Virus record (IMG/VR): IMGVR_UViG_3300031994_000065
Coordinates: 17,295 to 81,294 of that record
Source of the DNA: a virus
Taxonomy: Duplodnaviria > Caudoviricetes
DNA: 64,000 nt
Reading direction: 5' to 3' (one strand)
How positions within the stretch are numbered: position 1 is the first letter of the stretch; each line of letters begins with the position of its first letter. The translations under genes were made by a program, and so were the position numbers. This document shows, piece by piece, positions 1,595 to 19,377 of this stretch. Below the pieces are notes generated by a model. It saw only the letters and a program-made list of their open reading frames with translations, did not search any database and had not been told where the DNA came from.

Positions 1595-2785
1595 ATGAGA
1601 TTTTTTGGAAACGCTAGACCTATTGGTTCTGGTAATACATTTGATGTTCCGCATGACGGTCTCGCTTTCGCAATGCACGAATCTTTCTGTGATCTGGAAA
1701 TTTATTTTGGTGATTCCGAAGTTATGATGGCAAATATGTACGAAAACTGGATTATGGACACTAAACACAGTGCAACTCAGAAAGTTGTTATGTACGAAGG
1801 CGTCATTGCTAGTGCTTGGAAGAAAATCAAAGATTTTTTTATCTCCATCGGAAAAAAGATAAAATCGTGGTTTAATTCCGTTGTCAAGTTTTTCCGTGCT
1901 ATGTTCTCTAGCAATGCGAGTTTCATCAAGAAATATAAAGAATACATTAAAGGCAAAGAAGACAAAGATTTTGAGTTTGAAGCTCATGCTTGGAATCTCC
2001 ACCCTATGAAGCAAGTTAGAGACGACAGTAACACTTTTAGTGATTCGATCGATTTCGATAAACTTGTGGAAAAAATTGCTAAAAAGGCAGGTGGAAACGC
2101 TGCTACAGGTGGAAACGCTGCTACAGGTGGAAACGCTGCTACAGGTGGAAACGCTGCTACACAAGCAGAGGAAAGTTGGCGCATCGTTCGAGAATCTGGA
2201 GACAGCGACGACGCCGCTTGGGGTGGTACCGACGATGAAGTCAAAAAACTGAAAAAATCTATCGACGCACGAATGTTTAAAAGTTTGAAAGGCGAAAGTG
2301 CCACTGGGACAACAACGATCTCTAAATTCAAAACAGCACTTAAGAAAGCTATCACAAATGGTGAAAAGAAATCTTGTAAAGGTTTTGGTTCAAAAAACAC
2401 TTTTTCCCGTGATGAAATGATTCGATGGGTTGAAGATGAAAAGACCATTATTAGTGAAATAGAAGAAAATGCGAATGCTATTTCCGAAGACGCAGATTCG
2501 TATGCTGAAAAAGTATCGAACTTGATCGATAACGTTAATAAAGAACAGTATGATGTTGATGCATATAGAAGAGGTGTAAACGGAGCCGCGTCTGTCGCCA
2601 AATACGCTTTGTCATATCAAACGGCGGCTGCCTCAATAACGAAAGAGATGTATCAAGAAATCGTGGATGAATGCCGTAGCATTTTGGGGCAGTTCGTGCG
2701 TTATAGTGTAAAAGAATCTGGAAGCGGTTATCGTCATACCAAAAATAATGTTTCATTGATGGAAACATGGGTCAGAGGATGGTAA
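1595..2785 (+). CDS. Putative internal head protein (paralog family)
   Basis: ATG 1595 after SD AAAGGAGG; EGVIASAWKKIKDFF motif; N-terminus aligns with 317-1576 (DGLAFAMHESFCDL vs DGLLAAFEEAYHDI). Confidence 0.6.
   Translation: MRFFGNARPIGSGNTFDVPHDGLAFAMHESFCDLEIYFGDSEVMMANMYENWIMDTKHSATQKVVMYEGVIASAWKKIKDFFISIGKKIKSWFNSVVKFFRAMFSSNASFIKKYKEYIKGKEDKDFEFEAHAWNLHPMKQVRDDSNTFSDSIDFDKLVEKIAKKAGGNAATGGNAATGGNAATGGNAATQAEESWRIVRESGDSDDAAWGGTDDEVKKLKKSIDARMFKSLKGESATGTTTISKFKTALKKAITNGEKKSCKGFGSKNTFSRDEMIRWVEDEKTIISEIEENANAISEDADSYAEKVSNLIDNVNKEQYDVDAYRRGVNGAASVAKYALSYQTAAASITKEMYQEIVDECRSILGQFVRYSVKESGSGYRHTKNNVSLMETWVRGW
2090..2161 (+). repeat. 18-bp in-frame tandem repeat x4 (GGNAAT)
   Basis: ggtggaaacgctgctaca x4, perfect. 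Confidence 0.97.
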
Positions 2786-2808
2786 ACCACTTAACGACGC
2801 AGTGAATA

Positions 2809-2842
2809 AAAGGACACACAGATAATGTACTGTGTGTCCTTT
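2809..2842 (+). terminator. Intrinsic terminator-like hairpin
   Basis: 13-bp stem AAAGGACACACAG/CTGTGTGTCCTTT. Confidence 0.6.
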
Positions 2843-2869
2843 GTGACGTTAAAGAAAGGAGGAATAGGA

Positions 2870-5548
2870 ATGTTTAAATTCAAAAACACAGAACCTTCAA
2901 TTATAAACTCATCCGTGTTTAATGTTGCTGAACCTTCTGGTGGTATAGCGACAATCAATTTGTTTATTGATAACACTGAAGATGATTCGTATAGAACAAT
3001 GGCTGAATCAATGAGTGCATTATATCATGCGGTATCATGTAACGATATGGAAATTGCTCTTGAAGGTTTAGGAGATATGTTAAAATCAGCCTGTGAGTTT
3101 TTCAAAACGATCATTAAGAAAATCGCTGCATTTATCAAGAATACGTTTTACTACCTTATGTCATATGTGACAGATTTCGAGAAATTCATCGATAGATACA
3201 AAGAAAATATTCAAAACTTCAAGGAGTTTGAGGTTAATGGATATACATATACTATTGACAGTCAACCCATAGACAGTTCGGGAATAACGAATATCATTAA
3301 TCAATATAACAAGAATATCAAAACTATCAACAGCAAGGAGTATAGTGATATTCAAACAATGATTTCCAAAGAAATGGGTAAAGAGTCATTAGGGAAACTT
3401 CGTAGCACACTATGTGGAAAAACGTCTGGATTTATTAGGCCGGAGAAATTTATTGATGAAATGAATAAACGATTTCGCAATGGAAAAACTTCCACAAGCA
3501 ACATCAAAGTCAATTCTGGAACAGTGAATAGTTTTATCGATGAATTTAAAAGATGCAAAGCGATGTTACCGGATGTTAAAGAAGATGGTTATAACGTACA
3601 GAGTGTCTTAGATGACATGGAAAAATTCTTCTATAGTCTACCCAAATATGAATATGTCGATTCTGATGATAAACGCATAAAGCATTATAAGTTATCGACA
3701 GATCTCAAAAAAGGCGATTTTACAGCGGATGAATCGGATGAAGAAGGATATTCCACAGAGTATTACAAAAAACTCACTGCTTATTACAACTTCTGCTATA
3801 GGATGTGTAGAGAGATAGCTGGTATGTATACGAAAGCATATACTACAAAAATCGAAGCCATAAAAGAAGCCATCAGTTTCTATACATCAGTTATTAGAAA
3901 AGCGATCAGTCCATTTAATGAAAGAGAGACAGATAGTGTTAAATCTTCTAAAGAGTCAGTATCGATAATTCAAGATGGTTATACTGACTGGATGACTGAA
4001 TATGGTTTGAACGCATTTAAAGGTGAAGAATTATCGACACATGAGAGAATAAAAGCGTTCAATGAACTCAAGGCTATAGTTAAAACAACGAATACATCTT
4101 TTAAGTCAGAAATACAATATGGTGGCGAAAATTGTGTTGCTATTTTCAAGGCTGCAGGTCGTGGAGATGCAGAGAAAGATGCTAAAAATGCTGTCAGACT
4201 TGCCAATTCCAAATCAAAAGATTTTGTGTATAGTATACCCAAACCGAGTTTTTTCAATAAAGGGATTCTTGTGAATTACATTTGGGTTTATGCTAAGCAT
4301 AAAAAGAAGATGAAACTTCAAGAATCAGTCGGAATTATTCCTGCTATGGAAAATCTTCCTAAAATTCATGTTGGAGATGTCGACGACTATTCGATTCAAG
4401 CTATGGAAGCGATGCATGAGATTGAAGTTGCTAAATGGGATGCTCATTTCCGTGAATATCTCGATGAAATTGATGTTTTGGCCGAAGGTTATCGTCGCGG
4501 CTACATTCTCATGGAAGATGTAGAAGTGAAGGAGAAATCAGGACAAGATGCAAAAGAATCCACATTCTCCAAGATAATTGAGTTCATCCACACTATCATT
4601 GCAAAGTTTATGGATAAAGCATCTAATCTTTTTAACTCTAATCAAGAATGGTTTGATAAATACTCGGGCAAACTTAATGAAGTTAATGCTGAAGCATATG
4701 ATAATATTAAGATTACGATGCTTGCATATCATAAACAAAATAAGTACGATATACCTAGAACCAGCGTGTCACCAGATGATGCAAGACTTGGCACTGAGAA
4801 ATTCAAAACACTTGGAGAAGTTGCCGAATTGATGTACCCCGGAATTTGCAAATTATCTGCCACGAAAGATATTACTGAAGGCACGAAGATATATTTCCGA
4901 GGTGGTTCGAATACAGTTGAAACGTATTCAAATGGTGCAGATGTTAAGAAGCAAGTTACAATGATGGTGGAATGGTGTAAAGAATATACTGATACATGCC
5001 ATCACATAAAAGATCAGATTGATAAAATGACCGAAGAAATGGAAAAGATGGATAAAGCTTACGAAGCATCAAAAGAAGCGTCATATTCTTACGTTCTTTC
5101 TGAACAAGCATTATTGGAAGAAACTGGTCTGGCTTGGTTACCGTTTATTGATTCTAAAGGTAATGCTAAATTCCTTGTGCTCAAAGAAGCAGAAGGTGAT
5201 GCGAATAAAGAAAAGGCTAATAAGGAGAAGAAAGAAGGACAAGACGCTGCTAAAGCTGCTGGTGCAACTGTTGCTAATGATGATAAGAAAGAAACAAAAC
5301 CTGAGACTGAAGAGGAAAGAAAAGCTCGTGAGAAAAAAGAAGCTGATGATAAGAAAGCTAAAGACGATAAAATTTCTAGAGCTCTTGCTGCTAAATACTA
5401 TTATCAGGTTAAAGTTAAGGTTGCTACAGCAATGCTCACAATAGCTGAAGAGCGTTTCGTGTCATATATCAAAACATTACGTAATGTAGTTGCTTTGGCT
5501 CACATTGCTGCAGATAAAGCCGAGAAACCCGATAAAGCAAAAAAATGA
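2870..5548 (+). CDS. Large virion protein with two copies of the head-protein family domain
   Basis: ATG 2870 after AAAGGAGG; two LEG/MED...FFKTIIKKIAAFI and FSKIIEFIHTII segments like the upstream paralogs. Confidence 0.6.
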   Translation: MFKFKNTEPSIINSSVFNVAEPSGGIATINLFIDNTEDDSYRTMAESMSALYHAVSCNDMEIALEGLGDMLKSACEFFKTIIKKIAAFIKNTFYYLMSYVTDFEKFIDRYKENIQNFKEFEVNGYTYTIDSQPIDSSGITNIINQYNKNIKTINSKEYSDIQTMISKEMGKESLGKLRSTLCGKTSGFIRPEKFIDEMNKRFRNGKTSTSNIKVNSGTVNSFIDEFKRCKAMLPDVKEDGYNVQSVLDDMEKFFYSLPKYEYVDSDDKRIKHYKLSTDLKKGDFTADESDEEGYSTEYYKKLTAYYNFCYRMCREIAGMYTKAYTTKIEAIKEAISFYTSVIRKAISPFNERETDSVKSSKESVSIIQDGYTDWMTEYGLNAFKGEELSTHERIKAFNELKAIVKTTNTSFKSEIQYGGENCVAIFKAAGRGDAEKDAKNAVRLANSKSKDFVYSIPKPSFFNKGILVNYIWVYAKHKKKMKLQESVGIIPAMENLPKIHVGDVDDYSIQAMEAMHEIEVAKWDAHFREYLDEIDVLAEGYRRGYILMEDVEVKEKSGQDAKESTFSKIIEFIHTIIAKFMDKASNLFNSNQEWFDKYSGKLNEVNAEAYDNIKITMLAYHKQNKYDIPRTSVSPDDARLGTEKFKTLGEVAELMYPGICKLSATKDITEGTKIYFRGGSNTVETYSNGADVKKQVTMMVEWCKEYTDTCHHIKDQIDKMTEEMEKMDKAYEASKEASYSYVLSEQALLEETGLAWLPFIDSKGNAKFLVLKEAEGDANKEKANKEKKEGQDAAKAAGATVANDDKKETKPETEEERKAREKKEADDKKAKDDKISRALAAKYYYQVKVKVATAMLTIAEERFVSYIKTLRNVVALAHIAADKAEKPDKAKK

Positions 5549-15216: not shown

Positions 15217-15873
15217 TCAATATGCGAAAGTCATAGGAATACCCATGTCTTTCAACATGTTGAAACAGCTGATGAAACCTTCTCTTGGTTTGAGATACTC
15301 AAACCGAAAGAAGACTTTCCAATTTTCGCCGTAGCGTTTCTTGTAAACTTTTTCCGCTTCTCCGGATTCGAAATTCGTGACGTAGTTTTCGTACGCCTTT
15401 TTCGAAATCCAGAACCCCACGATTTTTTGCGGAGCGACAAACGCCTCGGTGTAGGCGCTGTATTCGTCGTCGAGTTTTTCATAGTCGTCAACGATGAACT
15501 CCTCACGAATTGATGGGTAACGCTTCCCATCAATCGTGTAGCTCCCGCAATCAACGGAGGCCATTAACGACGTTTCGCCTTTCACATAAACGCCTATTAC
15601 GCCGAGTCCTCCGTTCATGAGCCTAGATTCAGGCCCGGGTTTCGAGCAACTTATCTCGGCTCCGGTGCCAAGAATGGTCAACAGTTTTTCGAGTGCGACC
15701 GCAGGCGACTGCGATCTGTTGACAGCGTTGAGGCCGTGCGCCCAGACCACTCCGTCAGTTCCTCTCGGAACATGACGTGATTTGAGCGCCTTAGCGTTTT
15801 CGAACGCCTTTCTCTCCTCGTCGTTCAAATCATCTGATTTCACACCATTGACGTAAATGCTCATTTCAAACAT
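15217..15873 (-). CDS. Hypothetical early protein (cargo of cassette B)
   Basis: 218 aa, SD within the repeated leader. Confidence 0.8.
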   Translation of the reverse strand: MFEMSIYVNGVKSDDLNDEERKAFENAKALKSRHVPRGTDGVVWAHGLNAVNRSQSPAVALEKLLTILGTGAEISCSKPGPESRLMNGGLGVIGVYVKGETSLMASVDCGSYTIDGKRYPSIREEFIVDDYEKLDDEYSAYTEAFVAPQKIVGFWISKKAYENYVTNFESGEAEKVYKKRYGENWKVFFRFEYLKPREGFISCFNMLKDMGIPMTFAY

Positions 15874-15985
15874 CCTCCTTAAAGATGTGGATCGTAGGTT
15901 TTCGCAATTTAGTACAAGAGAACTCCTACTAAACTCCTATACACCACGATAATATATACTTATGGGAGAGGGTAATGTCGGAACG
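15874..15985 (-). promoter_or_regulatory. Repeated early expression cassette, copy B (type 1)
   Basis: CCGACA-N17-TATATATTAT plus conserved leader and SD. Confidence 0.9.
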
Positions 15986-15998
15986 TAAAAAGGAGAAA

Positions 15999-16041
15999 AA
16001 GCCAGAACCTATTAAGGTTCTGGCTTTGTCACGCTTCTTGT
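15999..16041. terminator. Hairpin terminator, duplicate of 17044-17085
   Basis: AAGCCAGAACCT/AGGTTCTGGCTT followed by TGTCACGCTT in both copies. Confidence 0.75.
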
Positions 16042-16070
16042 TGTGGGAGGTAAAAAATATCTCCTTGAGG

Positions 16071-16138: not shown

Positions 16139-16714
16139 TCATTTCCAGCCTTTTGCGCAGATAACCTTCGGAATATATTTCCAATACTGCACCGATTGCG
16201 CGCAGGTGTAAAGACGTATTGTCTTGTCAGCCCAACACACAAGCTTTCCATTGTTATATGGAAGTAGTATTGTTTCATATAAACTGATAGTGTTTTTGTC
16301 GCGTTTGAAACTGCGCCCGTTGAAATGGAAGTCTTGATGGCTACCATTACAACAAGAGATGAGTGTGTACTCTCCCTTGTCGAATTTGTTCGCCATCGAG
16401 AAATGATTTTCTTTCTTGCCTTCGATAATGAATTCTGCGAATCCTCCGTGAACGCAAGCAACCAGCCCCTGATCTGTTACTAACGGGACTGCTTCCATCT
16501 GGACGGCGAACCTTTTCAAGAATGACCATATGGTCAATTTCTTTCCAGTATCCGCGTATCTCACATCGGTGTACAACGACGCAGTTCCGTTTTTGACTTT
16601 GAAGTACGCGATAACGTACATCGCGCCGAACAGAATTGCCCCTCCTGTGAGACCCCAAATGACGTTAATAACGGAGACGATCGAATTTACCAGAGCGTTT
16701 TTCATTTCAAACAT
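16139..16714 (-). CDS. Hypothetical early protein with N-terminal transmembrane segment (cargo of cassette C)
   Basis: 191 aa; hydrophobic SIVSVINVIWGLTGGAILFGAMYVIAYF. Confidence 0.8.
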   Translation of the reverse strand: MFEMKNALVNSIVSVINVIWGLTGGAILFGAMYVIAYFKVKNGTASLYTDVRYADTGKKLTIWSFLKRFAVQMEAVPLVTDQGLVACVHGGFAEFIIEGKKENHFSMANKFDKGEYTLISCCNGSHQDFHFNGRSFKRDKNTISLYETILLPYNNGKLVCWADKTIRLYTCAQSVQYWKYIPKVICAKGWK

Positions 16715-16834
16715 CCTCCTTAAAGATGTGGATCGTAGGTTTTCGTCAATTTAGTACAAGAGAACTCCTACTAAACTCTCATACACCACGATAATATATA
16801 CTTAGGAGGGTGGGCGATGTCAGATTGAAAAATT
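16715..16834 (-). promoter_or_regulatory. Repeated early expression cassette, copy C (type 1)
   Basis: CTGACA-N17-TATATATTAT plus leader identical to copy A over the core. Confidence 0.9.
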
Positions 16835-16855
16835 ATATCGTGTCAACATATCATT

Positions 16856-17034
16856 AGATGCATCTATAATACTAATGTGCGGGCAATAGCTCCACTTTAA
16901 GGGAAGATAGGTTATTGGTGACAAACGCCTAAGTTGTACTCGGCTTATATAGTAGACTTCGGATTAACCCGCCTCGAAGTCGCCGCGTAACAGAATTGGC
17001 GGCTAGGCCTATCTTCCTGGGAGTCGTTTTTTTT
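16856..17034 (+). ncRNA. Candidate structured ncRNA (multi-way junction), family unknown
   Basis: Late promoter at 16845-16856; 12-bp closing stem GGAAGAUAGGUU/GGCCUAUCUUCC, four internal hairpins, G-U pairs favour the plus strand; ends in an 8-T run; no ORF. Confidence 0.65.
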
Positions 17035-17043
17035 GCGGACAAT

Positions 17044-17070
17044 AAGCCAGAACCTTGTAGGTTCTGGCTT
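17044..17070. terminator. Terminator after nrdD
   Basis: 12-bp stem AAGCCAGAACCT/AGGTTCTGGCTT. Confidence 0.75.
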
Positions 17071-17091
17071 TGTCACGCTTTTTGTAGTTTG

Positions 17092-19377
17092 TCAGATTGA
17101 AATCATCGGTACGGTTTTGTGATGCCACGATTCGTGTTCTTTGCGTTTGCAGTGTGGGCATTCGTTTTTTATAATACCGGTATAACCACAGACCGGGTCG
17201 CGGTCGACAGGGTGGTTCACACTGAAATATCCCATATTTGCATCGTGCATGGCTCGTACAAGTTTTTCAAAAGCTTCTACATTTTGGAGAGGATCCCCAT
17301 TGTACTCAATATAGCTTATCGCGCCAGCATCACATTTTTCATGGTATGGTGCTTCGATACGAATTTTATCGATAGCTCGTATCTTATAATACACAGGAAC
17401 ATGGAAACTGTTCGTGATGTACAATCTATCGGTGACACCACGTATGATTCCATAATCTTTGCGATTCGCTTTTTGAAATGTATTTGCTGTCCCTTCGGCT
17501 GGAGTTGAAAAGGTTGACCAATTCATTTTTTCTTCAACTTTAAACTTGTCGGTTTTGTCACGAAGATGTTGGACGATTTCCAATCCGAACCGTTGCGAAT
17601 CCTCATTCTCTCCATGATGTTTTCCTGTTAATGCTATTAAAGTTTCTGCAAGACCACAGAATCCAATAGAAAGGGTAGCATTTTTCAAAACTTTTCGTAT
17701 AGTATCATTTGGCGATAATTCATCGCTTCCCATCCAAACGCCTTGACCCATCAAAAACGGAAAATTGAAAACGTGTTTATCTGCAATAATTTGAAAACGG
17801 TAAAGAAGATAATCGTGACTAAGTTGAATATAGTGATCGTATATCTCGTAGAAACGTTTTATGATCTCTTCTTGTGGTGCGTTGTTTCCAAGTTGACGTT
17901 TTGCTTCGAGTGCAAATTTTGGAAGATTAAGAGTCACAAAACTAAAATTTCCTCTTCCACCAGTTTCTTCAGGTCCATTCACATTTCCGATAACACGGGT
18001 ACGGCATCCCATCGTTGCAGCGTATGTATTATAATTTCCTGGTTTATAATACTTCAAGTTAAAAGTGGCATCACACGATACAAAGTTCGGGTACAACCTC
18101 TTAGCACTCACTTCACATGCACGCTTAAATAAGTCGTAATTTGGATCGCCTGGGTTGAAATTGATTCCTGATTTAATCTGAAAAATCGAAATTGGAAATA
18201 GTGGAGATTCTCCCTTTCCCATTCCAGCATCAATAGCGTTGAGAGTTTCTCTTATTGCCAATCGTCCCTCTGGAGAAGTATCCATACCAAAGTTGATAGA
18301 ACTGAACGGAACTTGCCCGCCTGACCTAGCGTGTAAGCTATTAAAATTATACACCATTGCTTCCATAGCTTGACGTGTCTCTTCTTCAGTGGCATCTTTT
18401 GCTATTTCATAAATTGAATGAAGACCATCCCATTCGTTTCGCTCGACTTCCATGAAAACTTTACAGAAAACTCTCCATATTTCTTCTATGGTTTCCCAAT
18501 AATCACTAGAATTCTTAATGTCTTTATCTTCGACGTAATGTATCTTTGTTCTATCGAATTCTTCTTTGACTTCTTTACTAACCGTGTGCTTGTCGTACAT
18601 GTTCGATGTCACAAATTGTCCAAATTCAACCGTTTTAGATATAATTTCTTTCACGAATGTTTTTCTGATCCCTTCAGCCATCGCATAATCTTCTGCATTT
18701 AGTGACTGGCCTCCGAAACAGTCGTTCTGGTCTGATTGAATTGCCACACATGCTAAAGCTGCATATGATCGAATAGAGCCTGGTTCTCTTATATGACCAT
18801 GACCTGTTGAAAACCCACCGTGAAACAGTTTCAGTAGATCAATTTGACAACAATTCAACGTTATCATTGAGAAATCGTTATCGTGTTCATGAATGAAATG
18901 TTGACGATGTGCTTCAGCAAATTCTTTTGGTTGGGTATTAAGCGCGAATTCTTTTGCTCCATCTGATCCAAGTTTAAGCATTATGCCCATTGGACCATCA
19001 GTGTTAATATTTGCATTTTCCCTCTTATCGTCCATCGCTGAGGCATCAGTAAACAAAATGTCTTTATAAGTTTGCATGAGATTCTTCTTCGATTCCCGAC
19101 GAAGCATATGTTTATATCTGTAACAAATATACTTCTTGGCTATCTCGAAAAATCCGTGTTGCATAAGACGACGTTCCACGACATCTTGAATATCTTCGAC
19201 TGATATTTCAGTACGATCACCAATATCGGACTCTATCTGTTCAATGATATTCTCAAGATCGCGTTCGGTCATTTGTTCGACGGAAGCGTTGTTAGCTCCA
19301 ACAATCGCTTTGTAAATTTTCGATCGGTCGTATGAAACCAACGAACCGTCGCGTTTGATAACGCGTTCAAGATTCAT
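17092..19377 (-). CDS. nrdD: Anaerobic (class III) ribonucleoside-triphosphate reductase large subunit; C-terminal glycyl-radical motif absent
   Basis: N-terminal ATP-cone VIKRDGS; LNCCQID; GGQVPFSSINFG; finger-loop MGCRT; NHPVDRDPVCGYTGIIKNECPHC. Confidence 0.93.
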   Translation of the reverse strand: MNLERVIKRDGSLVSYDRSKIYKAIVGANNASVEQMTERDLENIIEQIESDIGDRTEISVEDIQDVVERRLMQHGFFEIAKKYICYRYKHMLRRESKKNLMQTYKDILFTDASAMDDKRENANINTDGPMGIMLKLGSDGAKEFALNTQPKEFAEAHRQHFIHEHDNDFSMITLNCCQIDLLKLFHGGFSTGHGHIREPGSIRSYAALACVAIQSDQNDCFGGQSLNAEDYAMAEGIRKTFVKEIISKTVEFGQFVTSNMYDKHTVSKEVKEEFDRTKIHYVEDKDIKNSSDYWETIEEIWRVFCKVFMEVERNEWDGLHSIYEIAKDATEEETRQAMEAMVYNFNSLHARSGGQVPFSSINFGMDTSPEGRLAIRETLNAIDAGMGKGESPLFPISIFQIKSGINFNPGDPNYDLFKRACEVSAKRLYPNFVSCDATFNLKYYKPGNYNTYAATMGCRTRVIGNVNGPEETGGRGNFSFVTLNLPKFALEAKRQLGNNAPQEEIIKRFYEIYDHYIQLSHDYLLYRFQIIADKHVFNFPFLMGQGVWMGSDELSPNDTIRKVLKNATLSIGFCGLAETLIALTGKHHGENEDSQRFGLEIVQHLRDKTDKFKVEEKMNWSTFSTPAEGTANTFQKANRKDYGIIRGVTDRLYITNSFHVPVYYKIRAIDKIRIEAPYHEKCDAGAISYIEYNGDPLQNVEAFEKLVRAMHDANMGYFSVNHPVDRDPVCGYTGIIKNECPHCKRKEHESWHHKTVPMISI

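Follow-up and report, generated by a model that had tools for sequence, protein, structure and literature searches.

The window, that is, the whole stretch of 64,000 nucleotides analysed here, belongs to an 81-kb IMG/VR virus record with a completeness estimated by CheckV at 32%. The genes of this fragment include those for a major head protein, a large terminase (TerL), a tail sheath, a prohead protease, a chaperonin, and a family-B DNA polymerase, and one of its proteins weakly matches the phiKZ internal head protein (phiKZ_IP). The fragment therefore comes from a large, giant-phage-type myovirus. Sheep and goat gut metagenomes contain near-identical DNA. Since the phage NrdD is nearest to the NrdD of Selenomonas, Anaerovibrio, and Mitsuokella (~60% identity), the host is probably a rumen member of the Selenomonadaceae.

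The locus of interest is a 377-bp gap between two minus-strand genes: an orphan gene of 191 aa without family match (16139–16714), divergent from the RNA described below, and nrdD, which codes for a class III ribonucleotide reductase (17092–19377; Pfam NRDD, 2.9e-165) and is convergent with it. The left flank of the RNA module is the back-to-back cassette promoter of the orphan gene (CTGACA-N17-TATATATTAT, minus strand, 16796–16828; repeat D1), which is kept in all relatives. The repeated AT-rich TATATATTAT box of the cassette genes resembles the giant-phage early promoters described in PMC7598289. On the right, a hairpin terminator block (17044–17085, not assigned to a strand; stem-loop 17046–17070) is shared with the convergent nrdD; it is homologous across all forms of the locus and has a second copy at 15999–16041.

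Some features of these flanks were observed along the way. The cassette-promoter spacer is a G9–G13 homopolymer in the relatives (L007:6045–6057, L012:11484–11492, L019:3628–3639, and, in reverse complement, near 4985 in L025), with GGAGGGTGGGCG in its place in the window. Contigs from several runs break at this G tract; either it poses a problem for assembly, or the spacer of the promoter varies in length. A 13-nt perfect direct repeat, TGTCAGATTGAAA (16818–16830 and 17090–17102), brackets the module and the terminator, one copy being the −35 region of the cassette promoter and the other spanning the stop codon of nrdD, and L007 has a 9-nt version; the repeat may be a recombination scar of cassette shuffling.

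As regards nrdD itself, the encoded protein ends 17 residues after CPHC, without the glycine (window 17092–17150), no Gly_radical match was found anywhere in the 81-kb fragment, and the Prevotella copri enzyme structure 8p23 aligns with the phage protein only up to its own residue 703 of 743. Because the bacterial Selenomonadaceae homologs (~752 aa) end at the same point, the missing glycyl-radical tail is a family trait and not phage decay. The gene is uninterrupted in the window and variously interrupted in relatives, namely by a group I intron (L003:3669–5390; Rfam, 69.6 bits), two HNH-ORF inserts (L007:2032–5098), a 285-nt gap (L012:9739–10024, and likewise in L016), an intein with LAGLIDADG (L006:3149–6532), and a LAGLIDADG ORF (L019:372–2331), while in L025 it lies in three pieces (2750–4001).

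Between the flanks lies the module (16833–17034, plus strand), an insertion with respect to empty sites that comprises an upstream element and a structured RNA. Within the former, block 1 (CATATCATTAGAT, 16847–16859) is unique in the window and is the sole upstream element kept in forms A, B, and C of the module (see below), where a single position varies (T/G). It may serve as a promoter or operator element. The RNA was modelled as 158 nt (16877–17034) with a 5' leader, a closing helix (P1), four hairpins, and a U8 tail. In P1, a purine-rich, SD-like 5' strand (GGGAAGAUAGGUU, 16901–16913) pairs with a pyrimidine-rich 3' strand (GGCCUAUCUUCCU, 17006–17018). Outside P1, ACUUU (16894–16898) pairs with GGAGU (17020–17024) in the MFE structure of a 218-nt stretch, and GCUCC (16889–16893) is an alternative partner of the same GGAGU. 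In X4, a low-depth contig, 16897/98 U>C would convert the U.G of this outer extension to C-G, and 16892 C>G disrupts the alternative pairing.

The fold places four hairpins inside P1: H1 (GGUG/CGCC, 16917–16929), H2 (UAAGUUG/CGGCUUA, 16930–16947), which includes the RUUGUNCNCGG block common to forms B and C, H3 (GACUUCGG/UCGAAGUC, 16955–16981), whose loop AUUAACCCGCC is the proposed pseudoknot partner, and H4 (GCCGC/GCGGC, 16982–17003), whose loop motif AACAGAAUUG also occurs in form B. In contig X12, 16926 C>U retains the H1 pair as G.U and the loop gains 1 nt; in X4, 16945 U>C disrupts one pair of H2. The H3 loop is 1 nt shorter in relatives, and 16986 C>G disrupts the innermost pair of H4 in relatives. 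The U8 run (17027–17034), read directly from the sequence, comes immediately after the closing helices.

This anatomy of closing stem, four hairpins, and U8 had been described in an earlier note made from the letters of the window, and it is present both in the sequence and in the MFE fold. The short elements named there (GCGGG/CCCGC, CAAUAGC/GUUAUUG, TGCGGGCAATA/TGCGGACAATA, and AGATGCATCT) were all located as well. Among them, the possible pseudoknot GCGGG/CCCGC and the competing 5' helix do not vary among form A sequences and have no direct equivalent in B or C, and the palindrome AGATGCATCT, supposed to start the RNA, is limited to form A and unconserved. The near-direct repeats said to flank the element are not supported as meaningful: 17037 G>A and the deletion of 16884 erode them in relatives, and the 3' copy is part of the flank that empty sites carry too.

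The MFE of the 160 nt from 16876 to 17035 is −55.7 kcal/mol (z −2.68), and z reaches −5.7 when the downstream terminator is included. The reverse strand of the element folds with about equal significance, so the fold alone is little proof. The only ORFs overlapping the element are short mechanical ones (34–50 aa), which are disrupted by 1-nt indels in the nearest relative.

Relatives of the locus were reached via the neighbouring amidase and NrdD proteins and an exact-protein contig index. Contigs from four other runs, belonging to other studies, span 16828–17150 at about 92–94% identity. Form A consists of the window and L007, which scores 174.8 bits against the single-sequence CM R1. Form B (L012, equal to L013–L015, and L016) is shorter, rod-like, and without a U-run after P1. 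Form C (L019, L021, and L022) has a U5 run after P1 and an additional gene of 131 aa that separates nrdD from the terminator (L006:6561–6956, equal to L019:3001–3396). Form D (L025–L029) is without the element, and the neighbour's promoter directly adjoins the nrdD terminator.

A further empty site is found in the same genome, at the paralogous junction 15972–16044, where the cassette promoter is joined directly to the terminator block. This junction arose by tandem duplication of the promoter-leader and terminator blocks in an 842-bp register (15861–16044 versus 16702–17088). Identity between the copies is 100% and 86% for the leader-promoter block and 93% for the terminator block of 43 nt. 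They enclose different cargo, and the RNA module is present in the second copy only (16702–17088). The filled sites of form A (window, L007), form B (L012–L016), and form C (L019–L022) occupy the same junction. The comparison of filled sites with the empty ones, both the paralogous junction and form D, thus defines 16833–17034 as a discrete module of ~200 bp. In related rumen phage contigs it occupies this place in three diverged forms, A, B, and C.

Form C also presented two loop inversions between otherwise identical copies: one hairpin loop reads ACATCTGT in L019 (3497–3510) and ACAGATGT in L022, and the terminator loop is inverted between the same two contigs, both being small loop inversions at palindromic stems. 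The 131-aa gene of this form bears a weak Acb2_Tad1_hairpin mark in the contig index; a Pfam scan at E ≤ 1 did not reproduce it, and the mark was given no weight.

Outside these contigs, searches for the element returned nothing: blastn of GenBank phages gave zero relatives, IMG/VR zero matches to two exact 20–21-mers and one degenerate nrdD-end pattern, and the JGI metagenome contigs zero matches to a 21-mer and a two-gap scaffold pattern. The orphan protein has zero homologs in IMG/VR and GenBank phages. CM R1 found nothing in three relatives of 193–238 kb and elsewhere matched just itself and L007; these negatives are weak because the single-sequence model also misses forms B and C. The P1 pattern had one chance, non-pairing match in the same three records. 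Amidase homologs (66–70% identity), tried as a route to relatives, ended at unrelated prophages. On the bacterial side, the module is absent downstream of bacterial nrdD loci, and blastn of 16840–17080 against 262 Selenomonadaceae genomes returned just ~27-nt matches to the terminator hairpin. The RNA family thus appears narrowly distributed among related rumen phage contigs, and the module, with no copy in those 262 genomes, does not appear to be host-derived.

Then, we evaluated P1 across the forms. Pairs were counted in register by script in six sequences, because the MAFFT alignment splits the 3' strand of P1 into different columns per form. Positions 1–10 are paired in all six sequences, with zero broken pairs, and compensatory double changes occur at four of the ten: position 3 (G-C in A, A-U in B and C), position 4 (A-U in A and C, G-C in B), position 8 (U-A in A and C, A-U in B), and position 10 (G-C in A and B, C-G in C). 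At position 1, forms A and C have G.U and form B has G-C. That four variable positions should lie exactly opposite each other and all be complementary has a chance that we estimate at the order of 1e-4 or less, for a covariation that comes from three independent lineages only. The apical (terminal) hairpin of form B adds two more compensatory pairs.

Conservation of the primary sequence points in the same direction. Between the window and L007, the RNA (16877–17034) is 96.2% identical (153/159), compared with 86% for the upstream part of the module, 82.5% for the terminator spacer, and 75%, with third-codon bias, for the 3' coding region of nrdD. In this pair the RNA is the best conserved stretch of the locus; the 96% identity could also mean that the segment was exchanged laterally not long ago. 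Of the 17 variable sites in form A, 14 fall in unpaired columns (binomial 0.013, for sites that are not fully independent), and of the three changes in paired columns one retains the pair as G.U and two disrupt it; the interior hairpins of this form are supported just by this placement of variation. Three 1-nt indels between near-identical form A copies (16884, 16922, and 16966) exclude a protein on either strand.

The opposite pattern was found inside form B, in which nrdD is ~90% identical between B1 and B2 (L012 and L016) and the RNA interior 50%, with block 1, P1, and the tail conserved. The interior architecture also differs by form: A has a five-way junction, B a rod, and C a forked rod; what is shared there is a few sequence blocks (AUWAUG after P1, RUUGUNCNCGG, UUCGGAUKAACC in A and C, and AACAGAAYUG in A and B), and the structure in common is P1 only. 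The overall pattern is that of a conserved scaffold with an interior either frozen or replaced, which suggests allele exchange between backbones or diversifying selection on the interior.

The P1 covariation, together with 96% conservation against 75–86% in the flanks, places the feature above chance. Taken at the level of sequence, these comparisons show a discrete, non-coding module under selection, its P1 kept by compensatory mutations. The interpretation in the earlier note is partly supported, in that the element does not code for protein, is structured and kept by selection, and ends in a U-run.

The element was also described as novel, which agrees with our searches, since cmscan with Rfam 15 (4,227 models) was negative for forms A, B, and C. 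The whole window had zero matches at the gathering score, the stretch 16700–17150 at E ≤ 10 with permissive filters gave only noise on the terminator hairpin, and a tRNA/tmRNA search found none. The element fits no known riboswitch or ribozyme family in Rfam. In particular, the hatchet ribozyme (RF02678), proposed as a weak lead, shares with it several stems and, according to the earlier note, a few short words, but its model did not match at the thresholds used, and the element has no conserved core across forms. We conclude that the feature is real and that the RNA family is new.

How the RNA would start and end is less uniform among the forms. The late promoter proposed for it corresponds to a sigma-70-like site, TCAACA-16-TATAAT (plus strand, 16843–16870), which scores 10/12. 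Matches of this type are no more frequent than chance in this AT-rich region, with 4 found against 3.5 expected. In place of the −10 box, L007, X4, X5, and X12 have TAATTA, form B has CTTAAT, and form C has AATAAT, and promoter scans of L007 and L019 called zero sites. The quality of the site is specific to the window, and its TATAAT box is not conserved. What is conserved, and unique in the window, is the upstream block CATATCAKTAGAT; all forms have an AT-rich hexamer 5 nt downstream of it, and 7 nt separate this hexamer from P1 in forms B and C. A late-promoter motif reported for phage AR9, AACA-N6-TA, fits block 1 in forms A and C but not in form B (PMC7598289). This match was given zero weight, as the motif is short and does not extend to form B, and as the 81-kb fragment yielded no phage RNA polymerase.

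At the 3' end, the run that stands two bases past the closing helices has 8–9 U in form A relatives and is U5 in form C. Form B lacks it, and there a 3' stem and U-run are supplied by the downstream hairpin with its T-rich tail. Because of this lack, the form B RNA must reach the shared hairpin. The T-rich tail on the plus side of the terminator, considered as a module-specific trait, was ruled out as such, the empty paralog having the same tail.

The reading that we prefer, at a probability of about 0.5, is that the module encodes a stable small RNA of the plus strand that acts in trans, in which P1 and the tail form the scaffold and the interior meets a fast-evolving partner. The module would be a self-contained small-RNA gene, with the promoter of a divergent accessory gene on one side and the terminator of the convergent nrdD on the other. 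Plus-strand transcription would start from the upstream block that is conserved and end either at the U-run that follows P1 or ~40 nt downstream, at the hairpin terminator shared with nrdD, giving a predicted RNA of about 155–200 nt. In P1 (10–13 bp), the SD-like purine-rich strand is locked by the pyrimidine-rich one. The product, by a weaker step of the argument, may be a stable RNA that binds in trans as a decoy or regulator, with P1 and tail as a constant scaffold and the interior hairpins as the surface for the fast-evolving partner. Such a partner would explain an interior that is near-frozen between distant phages yet replaced between close ones.

The trans role is read from the evolutionary pattern alone, because no partner, target, or mimicry was found. 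Antisense targets were searched for in the 81-kb genome, where the best matches were 11-mers, below shuffled controls. In duplexfold comparisons with the neighbouring cargo mRNA, the RNA did no better than shuffles (A1 108/200, B2 125/200, B1 6/200), and at the blastn level no sequence similarity to a host RNA or repeat was found in the 262 Selenomonadaceae genomes. The H4 loop motif AACAGAATTG recurs on the same strand in the orphan gene (16629–16638; 13/15 with flanks). A pairing of the H4 loop with the orphan mRNA through this motif was considered and rejected as probably due to chance; forms B and C are without a counterpart.

A narrower version of the trans-acting reading, which we put forward tentatively and regard as rather unlikely, sees in the module a novel class of phage RNA and takes the constant scaffold (upstream block, SD/anti-SD-like helix, and tail) with its swappable interior as a specificity determinant in conflict. 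The RNA would then be a host-defence decoy, or would serve exclusion or immunity between related giant phages, and its alleles would be exchanged among backbones via recombination at the conserved flanks.

Some known phage RNAs offer partial parallels to a trans-acting RNA. The c4 RNA of phages P1/P7 likewise has a conserved scaffold and a lineage-specific interior, with alleles differing between close phages, but here there is no complementary target in the 81-kb fragment or beside the module and no sequence or CM similarity. RNA anti-CRISPRs and phage RNA decoys are also small, quickly evolving RNA genes in accessory-gene hot spots; the present RNA differs from them in having no repeat-like unit and no resemblance at the blastn level to anything in the 262 Selenomonadaceae genomes. 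The phi29 pRNA (RF00044) is similar in size (about 120–174 nt), in its 5'/3' closing helix and branched interior, and in a structure more conserved than its sequence. A pRNA of this type was nevertheless rejected: a CM match is absent, and the fragment has a large terminase and a giant-phage-type head, not those of a phi29-like podovirus.

Among the alternatives to a plus-strand, trans-acting RNA, the functional strand might be the minus one, or the DNA itself might be what matters, which we consider unlikely. The element would then be a structured 3' extension of nrdD, acting as a read-through insulator or stability element before the next promoter, or else a DNA hairpin or protein-binding site. 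Watson-Crick covariation is strand-neutral, z-scores are similar on the two strands, and the lack of a conserved sigma-70 site on the plus strand agrees with such a role. Form C is 9–13 kcal more stable on the minus strand, and the X4 change at 16945 is a wobble on the minus strand only. On the other hand, the plus-strand MFE is lower by 10–17 kcal in form A and, by a small margin, also in form B; the form A fold contains seven G.U pairs, and the G.U at the base of P1 is conserved in A and C. The U-run just past the closing helices in forms A and C, and block 1 with its constant distance to the hexamer in all forms, are further cues for the plus strand. On the minus strand, A8 precedes P1 and no U-run follows it; the element would also lie behind the hairpin terminator with which, at empty sites, the upstream unit ends. 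Sites lacking the module work with an identical arrangement of promoter and terminator. Taken together, the plus strand is favoured on this comparative evidence.

Improbable to a similar degree is a mini-gene, relic or live, derived as a plus-strand copy of the promoter-leader-RBS cassette, with a tiny ORF whose RBS is hidden by P1; what counts would be the ORF product or the act of translation itself, as in an mRNA inhibited by fold-back. The 5' strand of P1 and its surroundings do resemble the cassette RBS (CCAC..UUUAAGGAGGAUGUUUGAAAUG versus CCACUUUAAGGGAAGAUAGGUUAUUGGUG), a start codon stands 6–9 nt past the purine tract in A (UUG/GUG), B1 (AUG), and C (AUG), and the block CUA-ARU-UGU-RCN-CGG is in one frame in both A2 and B1. 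Given the likeness of the P1 5' strand plus AUG/UUG to the ribosome-binding region of the cassette, the module may descend from a cassette. The ORFs themselves are less coherent: the number of codons is 5 in the window, 12 in L007, ~17 in X4, 13 in C, and 74 in B1, where the ORF runs through a terminator, and B2 is without a start. Form A contains frame-shifting indels, zero hydrophobic peptides are encoded, and there is no downstream gene to regulate. A type I toxin mRNA with fold-back inhibition was rejected for like reasons, as the translations vary from form to form in both length and sequence, and a hydrophobic one is not among them.

There is also a small chance that the RNA is a cis-antisense regulator of nrdD in the style of the lambda OOP RNA, which would pair with the 3' end of the nrdD message and trigger its processing. 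In this case the RNA would reach or pass the shared bidirectional terminator, and its body would stabilise it or tune read-through. The OOP RNA, of 77 nt, is largely antisense to cII and has no multi-helix body. Like it, the present element is a short non-coding unit convergent with a protein gene, has a stem and U-run end, and meets the neighbouring gene's terminator with its 3' region; unlike it, the overlap here is at most a shared terminator hairpin, and the conserved part is the 5'/3' closing helix. In favor of this role, one hairpin block (17044–85) is shared in all forms in a convergent layout, form B has to extend to it, and the linkage to the 3' end of nrdD holds in A and B. However, this geometry is common to any convergent gene pair, form C has another gene between nrdD and the module, the tandem terminators in A and C argue against intended read-through, and the conservation of P1 and of the interior blocks is left unexplained.

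Functionless, decaying spacer DNA with an incidental fold is very improbable. The narrow distribution, the unconserved interior architecture, and the negative partner search would agree with it, but the four compensatory positions of P1 with zero broken pairs, and an RNA 96% identical beside a gene at 75%, would not, so that the absence of function is already disfavoured. Finally, a self-cleaving ribozyme, hatchet or other, is hardly credible despite the multi-stem architecture and the mobile introns abundant nearby, as Rfam ribozyme models match none of A, B, and C even at E ≤ 10 with permissive filters and the interior, where a catalytic core is expected, is the least conserved part.

Giant phages have so far yielded few structured non-coding RNAs, and none is known to us from phages of rumen Negativicutes. 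The evolutionary pattern of the present RNA is unusual: the RNA is the best conserved stretch of the locus in one phage pair, and its interior is the most diverged one in another. Should it act in trans, as a decoy or specificity RNA, the accessory-gene hot spot next to nrdD would gain an RNA component; as a local regulator only, it would be an ordinary orphan sRNA. Under either reading, it is a candidate for an Rfam-style family with comparative support.
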